Source: Candidatus Latescibacterota bacterium (GTDB lineage Bacteria; Latescibacterota; UBA2968; UBA8231). From it: DNA of 64,000 bases. The notes beneath the pieces are model-generated. The model was not told the DNA's origin. It ran no database searches and saw only the letters and a list, made by a program, of their open reading frames with translations. Position 1 is the stretch's first letter. Each line of letters opens with the position of its first letter. The stretch is from contig CBDCSU010000006.1 of assembly GCA_965221775.1 (NCBI GenBank), positions 160,001 through 224,000 on the forward strand, read 5' to 3'. Below, piece by piece: positions 27,013 to 31,032 of the stretch. A program made the translations under genes and the position numbers.

Positions 27013-28170
27013 CTATGCCGCCGCTTCCATCAGGATCCGCGCCACCTCCGGCCGGGTGAACTCCATGGGCGGCACCTGTCCGGCGGCCAGCATGTCGCGC
27101 ACCTGCGTACCGCTGAGGATCACCCGGTCCTCCGGCCCGTGGGGGCAGGTCTTCATGGAGGCCATGCCCTCGCAGCGCTTGCAGTAGAAGGAGTGGTCGA
27201 AGTACAGGGGCGTGATGCCGAGATCCTCCGGCGGCACGCTGCGCAGCAGGTCCTGCGCCTCGTAGGTGCCGTAGTACGACCCGACGCCGGCGTGGTCGCG
27301 CCCGACGATGAAGTGGGTGCAGCCGTAGTTCTTGCGGAGGAGGGCGTGGAAGATCGCCTCCTTCGGGCCGGCGTAGCGCATCGCCGCGGGCAGCACCGAG
27401 AGGTGCACGTGGCCGGCGGGGTAGTAGCCCTCCAGCAGCGCCTCGTAGCAGCGCATGCGCACGTCGGCGGGGATGTCGTCGGGCTTGGTCTCGCCCACGA
27501 GGGGATGCAGCAGCAGCCCGTCGACGATCTCCAGGGCCGCCTTCTGGATGTACTCGTGGGCCCGGTGCACGGGGTTGCGCGTCTGGAACCCGACGATGGT
27601 GCGCCAGTCCCGCTCGGCGAAGGCGGCGCGGGTCTCGGCCGGGTCCTGCCGGTAGGGCCGCAGCACCTCCTCCAGCTCCTCGCGCTCGACGACGGTGACC
27701 GCGCCCCCCACGAGCAGGTCGTGCTGCCGGTAGACGGAGGCGACGCCGGGGTGGTCCTCGTCATCCGTCCCGAAGACGTTCCGCGCCTCGGCCTGCTTGT
27801 CGTACGGGTAGACCTCGTCGACCTCGATGATTCCCACGAGCCGTCCCGCGGCGTCGTGCAGGGCGGCCTCGCGGCCGACGCCGAGGGCGGCGGCGGCCTC
27901 CGGCGGCGCGGACAGGGTGATGGGCAGGCTCCAGAGGGTGCCGTCGGCGAGGCGCATCTCGCCCACGGTGCGCTCGTAGTCGGCGCGGTCCATGAAGCCG
28001 GTGAGGGGGCTCATGGCGCCGACGGCGATGAGGTCGAGGTCGGCGGACTCGCGGAGAGAGAGGGTGAGGCGGGGCAGGCCGCCGGCGCGGGCGCGGATCT
28101 CGCGCGCCTGCGCGGGTGAGGCCAGCCGCTGGACCAACTCGCCGCCGTGGGGTGCGATGGGGATCGTCAT
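27013..28170 (-). CDS. sat: Sulfate adenylyltransferase
   Basis: [10 protein letters not shown]; [13 protein letters not shown]; MRYAGPKEA; [15 protein letters not shown]; LSGTQVR. Start overlaps the cysC stop. Confidence 0.95.
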
Positions 28171-28742
28171 CGGGCCGCGGCCTCCGCCGGCTGTTTCGCC
28201 GTGCCCGAGGGGATGAAGCCCCGCATCTCCAGGGCGGCCACCACCTTGGCGAGACTCTCCTCGACGCTCTCCGCCTCCGTGTCGAGGAAGACGTCGGGGT
28301 TCAGCGGCTCCTCGTACGGGTCGGAGACGCCGGTGAAGTTGGGGATCTCGCCCTTCAGGGCCTTCTCGTAGAGTCCCTTCACGTCGCGCCGCACCAGCTC
28401 GTCGAGGGAGGCGTGGACGTGGACCTCGATGAAGCGGCCGATCTCGCCGCGGACCTCGTCGCGCACCTCGCGGTACGGCGAGATGGCCGAGACGATGCTG
28501 ACGACGCCGTTGCGGGTCAGCAGATGGCTGACGAACCCGATGCGGCGGATGTTGGTGTCGCGGTCCTCCTTGCTGAATCCGAGTCCCTTGCTGAGGTTCG
28601 TGCGCACCACGTCGCCGTCGAGCAGCTCGGACTTGACGCCGCGCTCCCGCAGCAACGCCAGCAGCCGCTCCGCGATCGTGCTCTTGCCCGCGCCGGACAG
28701 CCCGGTGAACCAGACGGTCACACCTTTGTGATCGATGGTCAC
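28167..28742 (-). CDS. cysC: Adenylyl-sulfate kinase
   Basis: [37 protein letters not shown]. Confidence 0.96.
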
Positions 28743-28745
28743 GCT

Positions 28746-29537
28746 TCATCTCCTTCCGAGAGTAGTGTGTCGTGATGGGGCCGCGTCTGCCTCGCCCCGG
28801 TTGCCGGTCGTTGAGACGACTTCGGCCGTCACGGGGTCGATATGGATGCCGCACTCCACCTTGTCCCCGCCCGACCAACGGCCCGCCCGCGGATCCTCAC
28901 CGGGCCTGACGGCGCGCGTGCAGTGGGTGCAGCCGATGCTGGGGTATCCGCGGTCGTGGAGGTCGTTGTAGGGCACGTCGTTCTCGCGGACGTAGTTCCA
29001 GACGTCATCCTCGGTCCACGCCGCCAGGGGGTTGATCTTGACGAGGTCGAATCTCGTGTCCCAGGCGGCGATGGCAACGTCGCGGCGGGTCTCGCCCTGG
29101 TCGCGGCGCAGGCCGGTGATCCATGCTCTCCGGCCTTCCAGGGCGCGCTCATTCGGGGCGACCTTGCGGATCTGGCAGCAGAGGTCGGGGTCGTCCTTCC
29201 ACAGCTCCGGCCCGTGCAGGACGGCCTGCTGCCCGGCGGACAGATCCGGCCTGAAGGCCAGGGGAAGGAACCCGTAGCGGCGCGCGGCTTCGTCCTTGAG
29301 GGCGTGGGTCTCCGTGAACAGGAAGCCGGTATCCACGTAGAAGACCGGCACGGACCGGTCGCTCTTCATGGCCATGTCGAGCAGGACCATGCCGGAGACG
29401 CCGCCGAAGCTGCAGGCGAGGGCGATCTCCGGCTGGAAGTTGTCGAGGGCCCAGGCCATGATCTGGCGGGGGTGAGCGGTCTCGAGCCCCGCGCTGACCT
29501 GGGCCAGCCTCTCCCCGGTCCATTCTTCTGTTTCCAT
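28746..29537 (-). CDS. cysH: APS/PAPS reductase, Fe-S type
   Basis: SFG, DTGFLF, CCQIRKVAP, WITGLRRDQ, GYPSIGCTHCT, RAGRW...ECGIH; GGAGGAG RBS. Confidence 0.94.
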   Translation of the reverse strand: METEEWTGERLAQVSAGLETAHPRQIMAWALDNFQPEIALACSFGGVSGMVLLDMAMKSDRSVPVFYVDTGFLFTETHALKDEAARRYGFLPLAFRPDLSAGQQAVLHGPELWKDDPDLCCQIRKVAPNERALEGRRAWITGLRRDQGETRRDVAIAAWDTRFDLVKINPLAAWTEDDVWNYVRENDVPYNDLHDRGYPSIGCTHCTRAVRPGEDPRAGRWSGGDKVECGIHIDPVTAEVVSTTGNRGEADAAPSRHTTLGRR

Positions 29538-29567
29538 GACTCCTCCGTCTCTTCTTCGTCACTCTGA

Positions 29568-29606
29568 ACAAAAAAACCGCCCCGATGACTGGCTCATCGG
29601 GGCGGT
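29568..29606 (-). terminator. Intrinsic terminator (attenuator) in the cysH leader
   Basis: ACCGCCCCGATGA-GCCAG-TCATCGGGGCGGT-TTTTTT: perfect 13-bp stem and U-tract about 30 nt before the cysH ATG. Confidence 0.9.
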
Positions 29607-29665
29607 GGATGCGCCTTCCTGCGTGCAGGGATTGGCGCTGCCGTGTTGGCGAGGCCGGCTTGCGT

Positions 29666-29779
29666 CTAAGGCACGGCCTCCCGCCCCGGGGTGGGCTCGC
29701 AACAACAACAGCAGCAGGTCCCCGCCATGCGGGTCCCCCGCGCCGACGCCGATCGGCCATGTGCGCGGGTCTTGATCAT
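29666..29779 (-). CDS. Poly-cysteine leader peptide (37 aa)
   Basis: MIKTRAHGRSASARGTRMAGTCCCCCCEPTPGREAVP*; TGC TGC TGT TGT TGT TGC at 29716-29699; GAGGA upstream; alternative in-frame ATG at 29728. Confidence 0.85.
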   Translation of the reverse strand: MIKTRAHGRSASARGTRMAGTCCCCCCEPTPGREAVP

Positions 29780-29843
29780 TTCCTCGTCACTTCCTCGAAT
29801 CCTGGTGGAGCGCCACCGCCGACGCGGCGACCAAAGCCCGACG

Positions 29844-29872
29844 AATCTACGGGGTCTCTACCTCCCCGGCAA
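29844..29872 (-). promoter_or_regulatory. Candidate sigma70 promoter of the leader-cysH-cysC-sat transcript
   Basis: TTGCCG (29872-29867), 17 nt, TAGATT (29849-29844). Confidence 0.5.
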
Positions 29873-30051
29873 CAGCCCCGGAACGGGCCGAAGCGGGGAC
29901 GTCCGGCTCGCCCGGCCGGGGGTGAGTCGCGCGGATGGCCGGCAGGTCCCGGCGGCGGCCGGGGAGCAGCCTCTCCTGATTGACACGCCGTCGGCGGGCC
30001 GTTTCTTCAGCCCTCCGCCGGAGACAAGCCTCGAGCAGAAAGGACGACCCC

Positions 30052-31032
30052 ATGCACATCGCCCTGGCCCTGGAACCCGACGCCACCGCCGTTTCCACCT
30101 TCGGCGCCCAGTGCGGCGTCGAGCACGCCGTGGGCACCTTCGACCTGACGCCGCTGGCGGACAAGCCGGTCGACGACGACGCCCAGCCCTTCAGCCGCGT
30201 CTCCCTGGCGCGCCGCAGGTCGCAGTACGAGAGCAACGGCTATCACCTGGCCGTGATCGAGAGCCGCCCCCCCATGGAGAGCATCAAGCTCGGGCGGGAC
30301 GGGCGCGACGAGGAGATCGCCGTCTGCTGCGAGCTCATCCGCAACATGGGGGCCGCCGGCATCCCGGTGTGGTGCCCGGCGTGGATGCCCGTCCACATGG
30401 TGATCCGCACCTCGCGCCAGCTGCCGTCGCGGGGAGGCTCCAGGGTGACGGGATTCGACCTGGAGGAGTTCAACCGCACCCACGAGGCCGGCGTCCACGG
30501 CGAGATCACCGAGGCCGATCAGTGGGAGAACCTGAGATACTTCCTCGAGCGCGTCGTGCCCGTGGCCGAGGAGGCCGGCGTCAAGCTGGCCATGCATCCC
30601 GACGACCCGCCCCTGTCGCCGATCCAGGGCGTGGCCCGCATCATCAGCAGCGTCGACAACTACCAGCGCATGGTCGACCTCGTGCCCAGCCCGGCCAACG
30701 GCATCGGCCTCTGCCAGGGCAACTTCGGCCTCATGACCGACGACCTGCCCGGCGTCATCCGCCACTTCGGCGGGCAGGAGAAGATCCACTTCGTCCACTT
30801 CCGCGACATCCGCGGCACGCCGGAGAAGTTCCAGGAGGCCTTCCACGACGACGGCCAGCACGACATGGCCGCCTGTGTCCGAGCCTACAAGGACGTCGGC
30901 TACGGCGGCGTGGCACGCCCCGACCACTTCCCGCAGCTGACCTACGAGGACTTCGAGGACACGCACTCCATGGAGCGCCTCTACGCCATCGGCTACATGC
31001 GGGGCCTCATCGAGGCGGTCTACAGCGAGTGA
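30052..31032 (+). CDS. uxuA: Mannonate dehydratase family protein
   Basis: IKLGRDGRDEEI, WENLRYFLERVVPVAEEAGVKLAMHPDDPP, HFVHFRD, RPDHFP, YAIGYMRGL; AAGGA RBS before ATG 30052. Confidence 0.85.
   Translation: MHIALALEPDATAVSTFGAQCGVEHAVGTFDLTPLADKPVDDDAQPFSRVSLARRRSQYESNGYHLAVIESRPPMESIKLGRDGRDEEIAVCCELIRNMGAAGIPVWCPAWMPVHMVIRTSRQLPSRGGSRVTGFDLEEFNRTHEAGVHGEITEADQWENLRYFLERVVPVAEEAGVKLAMHPDDPPLSPIQGVARIISSVDNYQRMVDLVPSPANGIGLCQGNFGLMTDDLPGVIRHFGGQEKIHFVHFRDIRGTPEKFQEAFHDDGQHDMAACVRAYKDVGYGGVARPDHFPQLTYEDFEDTHSMERLYAIGYMRGLIEAVYSE

Follow-up and report, generated by a model that had tools for sequence, protein, structure and literature searches.

A candidate cysteine-sensing leader-peptide attenuator upstream of cysH-cysC-sat in an FCB-lineage genus and in Dehalococcoidia

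Cysteine leaders described so far and the leader before cysH

Sulfate assimilation is usually controlled by proteins (CysB, CymR), by riboswitches or by T-boxes, and the textbook leader-peptide attenuators are those of the enterobacterial trp, his, leu, thr and phe operons. Here, we describe a leader element on the minus strand of a 64,000-nucleotide (nt) stretch of DNA from a Candidatus Latescibacterota bacterium (the window; contig CBDCSU010000006.1, positions 160,001 to 224,000), in which a short open reading frame (ORF) with six consecutive Cys codons is followed by an intrinsic terminator just upstream of the cysH-cysC-sat operon. From sequence comparison and RNA folding we consider it highly probable that this element works as a transcription attenuator of the classical leader-peptide kind, with charged tRNA-Cys as its signal and cysH-cysC-sat under its control. 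As in the enterobacterial attenuators, the leader ORF is short and rich in codons of the amino acid that the pathway yields, the codons with a regulatory role are base-paired (in a helix, P1, that recalls the enterobacterial 1:2 helix), the antiterminator arm would lie just past the footprint of the stalled ribosome, the stop codon is sited so that a finishing ribosome would block the antiterminator, and the intrinsic terminator stands immediately before the first biosynthetic gene. In contrast to the enterobacterial systems, the window leader would sense cysteine and control sulfate activation and reduction, its P1 encloses the antiterminator arm with no directly shared strand, its antiterminator spans two conserved hairpins, and its hosts are uncultured Dehalococcoidia and a genus of the FCB lineage.

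Leaders with regulatory Cys codons have been reported in other bacteria. Seliverstov 2005 (PMC1262725) describes candidate Cys leaders that precede cys or cbs operons in Actinobacteria and have their Cys runs close to the stop codon; it reports no conserved terminator hairpins and suggests Rho-dependent termination, whereas the window element has a conserved terminator and a conserved candidate antiterminator. For mycobacteria, Canestrari 2020 (10.1101/834739) describes leaderless polycysteine small ORFs (sORFs) that control cysteine-related operons by acting on translation: the Cys tract pairs with the Shine-Dalgarno sequence further downstream, and cysteine had no effect on a transcriptional reporter. 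The paper states that Cys attenuation mediated by an upstream ORF was previously undescribed. The window element resembles these sORFs in having consecutive Cys codons upstream of a cysteine-related operon and base-paired in the leader RNA; it differs in that its Cys codons pair with a segment of the leader, in that a canonical terminator follows, and in that its 5′ untranslated region would be ~58 nt long if transcription starts at 29837. Brewer 2021 (PMC8632094) predicts a ribosome-mediated attenuator, uORFC-8-2, upstream of cysS in Rhodobacterales (Alphaproteobacteria). Compared by this description, uORFC-8-2 is like the window element in having Cys codons in the first stem and a terminator stem with a U-run at the end, and unlike it in controlling cysteinyl-tRNA synthetase and in having two tandem Cys codons at positions 14-15. 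In the accessible parts of two further sources, PMC2965389 does not mention Cys attenuators and PMC13236596 mentions regulatory Cys codons for mycobacterial translation attenuation only.

In a full-text literature search, with subscription-only works outside its reach, no leader-peptide attenuator turned up for cysH, cysC or sat, nor any in Chloroflexota, Gemmatimonadota or Latescibacterota; the only Cys leaders that it returned are the actinobacterial ones and the cysS motif of Rhodobacterales. A first-pass annotation of the window, made from the sequence alone, had called a poly-Cys attenuator of this kind apparently undescribed; this holds for sulfate-assimilation operons, while a terminator-type Cys attenuator had already been predicted before cysS (PMC8632094).

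The leader, its reading frame and the predicted switch

The element lies in a 509-bp gap that separates cysH from the divergent gene uxuA (PF03786), and all its features are on the minus strand. The leader ORF (29779-29666) has 37 codons and a TAG stop (MIKTRAHGRSASARGTRMAGTCCCCCCEPTPGREAVP), with a second in-frame ATG at 29728, six consecutive Cys codons (TGC TGC TGT TGT TGT TGC; 29716-29699) as the putative regulatory codons and the stop codon at 29668-29666. Downstream of the Cys run, the candidate antiterminator 5′ arm A1 (CGGGGCGG; 29688-29681) is complementary to CCGCCCCG at 29605-29598, and the latter doubles as the 5′ arm of an intrinsic terminator (29606-29570) with 13 pairs, nine of them G-C, a 5-nt loop and a U7 tract (stem 29606-29576, T7 29576-29570). 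The hairpin energy of this terminator is -26.5 kcal/mol, and 33 nt separate its U-tract from the cysH ATG, an interval in which the promoter scan found no promoter-like site. Two hairpins lie between the antiterminator arms: P2 (GAGGCCG...CGGCCUC; 29680-29651), which holds the leader stop codon and is recovered by RNAalifold and by pair counts, and P3 (GCGCC..CCUG..CAGG..GGCGC; 29638-29611), seen in the stall-state folds and in pair counts. The 5′ strand of P1 (29715-29703) lies within the Cys codons and is found in minimum free energy folds, in pre-terminator folds and by RNAalifold; its 3′ strand, the proposed anti-antiterminator CAACACGGCAGC (29648-29637), is the partner of the Cys codons in folds, RNAalifold and pair counts.

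Re-reading of the sequence confirmed the coordinates, strand and gene order that the first-pass annotation had given for the promoter-like hexamers, ORF, Cys run, terminator and cysH-cysC-sat, and the proposed complementarity between A1 and 29605-29598 was borne out. P1 had been missed. Of the claimed antiterminator, the 7-8 bp GGGGCGG:CCGCCCC helix over P2 and P3 is conserved; its proposed extension GTGCCTT:AAGGCGC is missing from the alignments of genome G002, genome G006 and the Dehalococcoidia copies. This second pairing was dropped; AAGGCGC is part of the conserved hairpin P3.

The window's own genome (G000; 5,363,968 bases, 69.8% GC) contains 51 runs of at least four in-frame TGY codons when all frames of both strands are read, most of them CTG repeats out of frame, and the leader run is the only one to reach at least six Cys codons. 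Runs of T6 or longer number 80, and 25 of these follow a hairpin of -15 kcal/mol or better. The sole long Cys run lies ~120 nt upstream of one of these 25 strong terminators and directly before a sulfate-assimilation operon, which is a non-chance arrangement. In long ORFs of this genome, Cys accounts for 0.86% of codons and TGT for 7.5% of Cys codons; in the leader, three of six Cys codons are TGT, and CAACA is their partner in P1. Two more Cys runs with TGT occur in the genome; both fall inside coding regions and belong to a different reading frame. The genome has a single tRNA-Cys(GCA) gene. A covariance model (R1), built from the five sequences of the genus (G000, G004, G007, G002 and G006), gave a single hit in G000 and hence no second copy of the element there, and a crude scan of 123 terminator-like sites in the same genome revealed no other Cys leader.

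The leader ORF, pair counts and alignments were compared over a set of 29 copies (28 distinct sequences). Every copy has an ORF that starts with ATG and runs for 27-39 codons, with Cys codons in the same place that number two (18 copies), three (5), four (3), six (2) or seven (1). Between the last Cys codon and a GGGCG motif lie 12 nt in 9 copies and 15 nt in the other 20, and this motif is 18, 21 or 24 nt from the stop codon; therefore, lengths within the ORF differ by multiples of three throughout. Judged from these sequences, the leader ORF is under reading-frame constraint. The first-pass annotation had proposed to look upstream of cysH in related genomes for a conserved Cys run and frame, and Cys codons and frame are kept in the 29 copies. 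With a textbook value for the size of the ribosome footprint, the 12-15-nt gap would leave the antiterminator arm just beyond the reach of a ribosome that stalls at the final Cys codon. Dehalococcoidia leader peptides resemble MNSYAHTYSPSVVAVALSAAVTCSCYMPVPGREAAR, and the G006 peptide MNAQFHIPDCSAIALAPRAAVTCSCCCTPIQGREAGRAT is plainly homologous to MNTQSHRNSPSVIALAQRAAVTCSCCCMPTQGREAGPLS of the Dehalococcoidia genome G113; the G000-type peptide shares with the Dehalococcoidia type no more than the Cys block and a P.PGREA tail.

Four elements, namely P1, P2, P3 and the terminator, emerge both from RNAalifold and from folds of single sequences, and the terminator region aligns in all 29 copies. 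In the 29-sequence model alignment, standard pairs occupy 86.6% of cells compared to 32-45% with the partners slid, and 18 pairs change on both sides compared to 1-5 with the partners slid; the observed pair values were reached by none of 500 shuffles. Changes on both sides occur at 5 of 13 pairs in P1, 7 of 9 in P2, 4 of 5 in outer P3 and 2 of 4 in inner P3. An Rfam 15 scan of 28500-31000, with expect values (E) up to 10, returned four chance-level unrelated matches, each far below its gathering score, and no match to T-box, SAM (S-box), other sulfur riboswitch or amino-acid leader models.

Covariation is strongest in P2 and P3, and the core GGGCGGGAGGCC is near-invariant across two phyla, which would also be expected of a translation-independent RNA switch. 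In such a switch, P2, P3 and GGGGCGG would bind a protein or metabolite that decides between terminator and antiterminator, with the ORF as a bystander. Against such a switch, all 29 copies keep the ATG, the open frame, the Cys codons at their fixed distance and the stop codon in P2, with insertions and deletions in multiples of three; the number of Cys codons ranges from 2 to 7 and never falls to none, and the Rfam scan, run to E 10, gave no credible family match. We regard this explanation as improbable.

In the attenuator reading, transcription would begin near 29837 and the leader RNA would adopt three mutually exclusive arrangements. If the leader were left untranslated, P1 (29715-29703:29648-29637) would enclose GGGGCGG in a closed domain and the terminator (29606-29570) would form. 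When cysteine is plentiful, the translating ribosome would reach the stop codon (29668-29666) and cover GGGGCGG and P2, the terminator 5′ arm would be free, the 13-bp hairpin with its U7 tract would form and RNA polymerase would halt 33 nt before cysH. When cysteine is scarce, a ribosome stalled on the Cys codons would melt P1 and stop just short of GGGGCGG, which would then pair with CCGCCCC over P2 and P3, such that no terminator forms and cysH-cysC-sat is transcribed. Translation of the ORF, stalling on the Cys codons, coupling of transcription to translation and cysteine-responsive read-through are all predicted here from sequence and folding models.

To represent the ribosome, we folded 16 copies with the bases under it barred from pairing. 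In RNA ending before the 3′ arm of the terminator, a ribosome on the first Cys codon left the CCGCCCC arm paired with GGGGCGG in 16 of 16 copies (15 by automated count and L040 from its individual fold), and a ribosome at the stop codon left 0-2 of 7 arm bases paired. In ribosome-free pre-terminator folds, the Cys codons paired with the downstream segment (P1) in 14 of 16 copies, with local pairing in the other two (L044 and L045). The full-length fold contained the terminator in all 16 copies, and the switch was visible only in folds ending before the terminator 3′ arm. Thus, folding with and without the segment covered by the ribosome, which the first-pass annotation had put forward as a check, gives the predicted switch in every one of the 16 copies, in pre-terminator RNA. 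Together, the 28 homologous copies and these constrained folds support a ribosome-mediated, Cys-codon-dependent attenuator before cysH-cysC-sat, as that annotation had claimed.

Several observations weigh against this interpretation. In five copies, the full-length equilibrium fold kept the terminator even with a stalled ribosome imposed; because full-length folds always give the terminator, the decision would have to be kinetic, as it is in textbook attenuators, and the predicted switch relies on assumed co-transcriptional kinetics. In G000, G004 and G007, the antiterminator is preferred over P1 in the ribosome-free state once the terminator 5′ arm and loop are included. Most Dehalococcoidia copies have just two Cys codons, with a Ser codon between them, and the Shine-Dalgarno spacing at the ATG at 29779 is poor (GAGGA 2-3 nt upstream, or GAGGAAG at ~12 nt). 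Pair counts were made on alignments that had been fitted to the model, and such fitting favours the structure. The antiterminator helix GGGGCGG:CCGCCCC has 7 of 8 pairs standard in 25-28 of the 28 distinct sequences and never covaries, two of its pairs being invariant and six departing solely through unpaired cells. Its conservation could come from the peptide motif GREA or from a general taste for such terminator stems, and ordinary terminators in these genomes also show CCGCCCC/GGGGCGG stems; as the helix is without covariation, conservation neither proves nor disproves this pairing. In G006, the antiterminator register is off by one base and 7 pairs are retained.

A different use of the same Cys codons would be attenuation at the level of translation or RNA stability, as in mycobacteria, where stalling unmasks a downstream ribosome-binding site or alters Rho or RNase access and the hairpin with its U-tract is unregulated. 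Mycobacterial polycysteine sORFs are described as acting in this way (10.1101/834739), and the Cys codons are base-paired in the window leader also. However, their partner is 29648-29637 and not the cysH Shine-Dalgarno sequence at 29546-29540, which lies past the terminator, and the canonical terminator is kept in 29 of 29 copies. We judge this mode to be unlikely, and slightly more so than the RNA switch.

The leader may be transcribed from a promoter-like pair of hexamers, TTGCCG (29872-29867) and TAGATT (29849-29844), separated by a 17-nt spacer. In alignment, the -35-like hexamer is kept in G004, G007 and G002 (as TTGCCA in G002). The promoter scan, with a threshold of 9 consensus positions, reported 0 sites; by hand count, TTGCCG and TAGATT match 8 of 12 consensus positions. 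The stretch occurs mainly in sequencing runs labelled sponge metagenome, and two metatranscriptome runs (X18 and X19) of one study gave exact-match contigs covering 29611-29837 and 29611-29822. The end at 29837 (X18, record 5), 7 nt downstream of TAGATT, is our candidate transcription start. A DNA contig from another study spans 29167-30117 and crosses both ends of the RNA contigs. These data hint weakly that the predicted promoter drives the leader; against this, contigs cannot prove RNA ends, both contigs come from one study and RNA libraries can hold DNA. Neither X18 nor X19 covers 29474-29590, which gives no evidence of termination, since contigs do not show absence. Contigs of a further run (X20) over cysH and cysC are ~92% identical and hence come from a relative. 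The end common to both RNA-library contigs, 29611, is the final base of P3; it falls 5 nt ahead of the terminator stem and not at the U-tract. Processing, drop-off during reverse transcription or an effect of assembly could account for it.

Alternatively, the ORF could be a small gene in its own right that encodes a Cys-rich peptide (metal- or redox-binding, for example) and has its own terminator, with cysH outside read-through control. This would suit the strong terminator (-26.5 kcal/mol) and the RNA-library contigs over the leader alone, but it is the least probable explanation of all, given the 33 nt without a promoter-like site between U-tract and cysH ATG, the wholly unlike peptides of the G000 and Dehalococcoidia types beyond the Cys codons and GREA, the presence of just two Cys residues in most copies, and the constant linkage of the element to cysH, once per genome, with second weak matches (E 6e-5 or worse) that are gene-end terminators.

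Distribution and origin of the element

A search for cysH in 61 related genomes gave matches in 57. Close orthologs (74-92% identity) were found only in G004, G007, G002 and G006, all of the same genus as G000, and an ORF with Cys codons and a terminator precede cysH in all four. The Cys patterns in these four are CCCCCC, CCCCCCC, CCRC and CSCCC. Four further genomes of the genus have a cysH only 38-40% identical, and no cysH match was found in G003 (76% complete). Among 76 genomes of the family, R1 matched exactly the five genomes from which it was built, at E 1e-28 or better, corresponding to 5 of the 10 genomes of the genus. Three weak matches in the family (E 0.002-0.006) were two ordinary terminators and one coding sequence.

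In a protein search of all species genomes, the three closest cysH loci (L039, L040 and L051; 75-92% identity) are labelled by their submitters as Candidatus Latescibacterota (two) and Gemmatimonadaceae (one). The next-closest cysH sequences, at 72-75% identity, came from metagenome-assembled genomes labelled Dehalococcoidia or Chloroflexota. Judged by the record titles, metagenome assemblies are the sole source of these organisms. R1 was run on 33 sources, comprising 30 of 80 cysH loci (L039-L068) and the weak hits L036-L038. It matched all 11 of the Dehalococcoidia or Chloroflexota loci with 72-75% identity (E 1e-12 to 2e-20) and gave no match in L053-L068, including L053-L055, where cysH identity is 57-60%. 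In L069-L118, to which R1 was not applied, no Cys ORF was found by a crude regular expression that needs three Cys codons and would miss two-Cys leaders.

Within one order of Dehalococcoidia, R1 found the element in 23 of 30 species genomes, with one credible copy each, always upstream of a closely related cysH; at every locus examined, the downstream gene is cysH. Weak R1 matches (E 6e-5 to 6e-3) were rejected, as six of the seven inspected (L036, L038, L220-L222 and L242) are gene-end terminators and the seventh (L037) is coding. A pattern scan of metagenomes matched 97 stretches, of which 80 were fetched and only one (L168) is a true member, a gain of next to nothing for the covariation analysis. 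The first-pass annotation had ascribed the element to an FCB-type lineage: it is present in an FCB-lineage genus, while it is commonest, with no more than 2-4 Cys codons, in one Dehalococcoidia order (23 of 30 genomes), which by the cysH tree is its likely source.

In a maximum-likelihood tree of 48 cysH rows, drawn with a midpoint root for display only, every leader-bearing cysH falls into a single clade (support 99/94); other Dehalococcoidia are its sister group (100/97), with Kouleothrix next. The cysH of relatives of G000 from the same class falls in a separate clade, and that of G006 is not resolved with the other four members of the genus. In the window, GC content drops to 0.64-0.70 over the operon compared to 0.70-0.79 in the flanks. 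These comparisons suggest that leader and operon were probably transferred from Dehalococcoidia into the genus, perhaps twice, with growth of the Cys run thereafter. The direction of transfer is drawn from the nesting of leader-bearing sequences among Chloroflexota, with no formal test. On balance, we lean towards a portable cassette, in which the leader together with cysH-cysC-sat would have moved from Dehalococcoidia to the FCB-lineage genus, possibly on two occasions, and the sensor would have been retuned by expansion of the Cys run from 2-4 to 6-7 codons and by a new promoter and N-terminal half of the peptide.

The upstream regions of the copies differ. In G002 (L004/L040), the leader ATG is 9 nt after a -10-like TAGTTT, such that the mRNA may be fully or almost leaderless; in the G000 type, ~58 nt separate the candidate start from the ATG, and the N-terminal peptide is unlike that of G002. 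In the Dehalococcoidia copies (L216-L240), a TTGACA-17-TATAGT promoter is strongly conserved and lies 40-75 nt ahead of the leader ATG. Most of them carry an inverted repeat, GTGAC-N4-GTCAC, just upstream of the -35 hexamer, and the G000-type promoter is without it. From its sequence, this repeat may be a transcription-factor site and thus a second layer of control.

The controlled operon and implications for sulfur metabolism

The genes behind the leader encode sulfate activation and reduction steps toward cysteine, all on the minus strand. cysH (29537-28746) encodes a (phospho)adenylyl-sulfate reductase (PF01507, E 1.6e-49; NF002537, E 2.6e-79) and is preceded, downstream of the terminator, by the Shine-Dalgarno sequence GGAGGAG at 29546-29540. 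It is followed by cysC (28742-28167), for adenylyl-sulfate (APS) kinase (PF01583, E 1.2e-59), and by sat (28173-27013), for ATP sulfurylase (PUA_2 PF14306 and ATP-sulfurylase PF01747; NF003166, E 4.1e-161). The ORF finder had reported an ORF of 621 amino acids (aa) at 27013-28878 on the same strand; this is a high-GC artefact, its first 235 codons being an out-of-frame overlap with cysC and the end of cysH, and the true sat start is at 28173.

In the Dehalococcoidia genome G100 (L243), the operon reads leader-cysH-cysC-sat-sulfite reductase (NIR_SIR)-hemD. In G006, cysC and sat are fused into one gene that encodes 568 aa (APS_kinase, PUA_2 and ATP-sulfurylase domains; L245, 4269-5975, minus strand). 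Two Dehalococcoidia genomes share a conserved ORF of 122 aa, with no Pfam match, immediately ahead of the leader promoter (L243, 1563-1931, and L244, 1116-1484, both on the plus strand).

A second candidate leader-peptide attenuator lies outside the window, on the minus strand of G000 contig C6 at ~646,560-646,800 (L246, 2350-2125). There, TTGACG-17-TACACT is followed by a 30-codon ORF (MIMMTRQNACTHNNPANPGDNNPPAPLRVF, then a stop) with six Asn codons and one Asp codon, by a 10-bp hairpin with T6 and by aspS (NF001750, E 3.6e-239). From its sequence, this candidate could sense the charging of Asn or Asp tRNA.

Cysteine has long been missing among the amino acids sensed by classical attenuators, the sole terminator-type prediction found being that for cysS (PMC8632094). 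A leader-peptide attenuator on cysH-cysC-sat, or on cysH-cysC-sat-sir, would be an additional mode of control for sulfate assimilation, and cross-phylum transfer would mean that such cis-acting regulators can travel along with their operons. The occurrence of 2-7 Cys codons on one RNA scaffold would provide a natural dosage series for relating codon number to attenuator sensitivity. For the hosts, the element points to a possible means of sensing sulfur amino acids in Dehalococcoidia, with genomes of ~2 Mb, and in FCB-lineage bacteria from sponge metagenomes.

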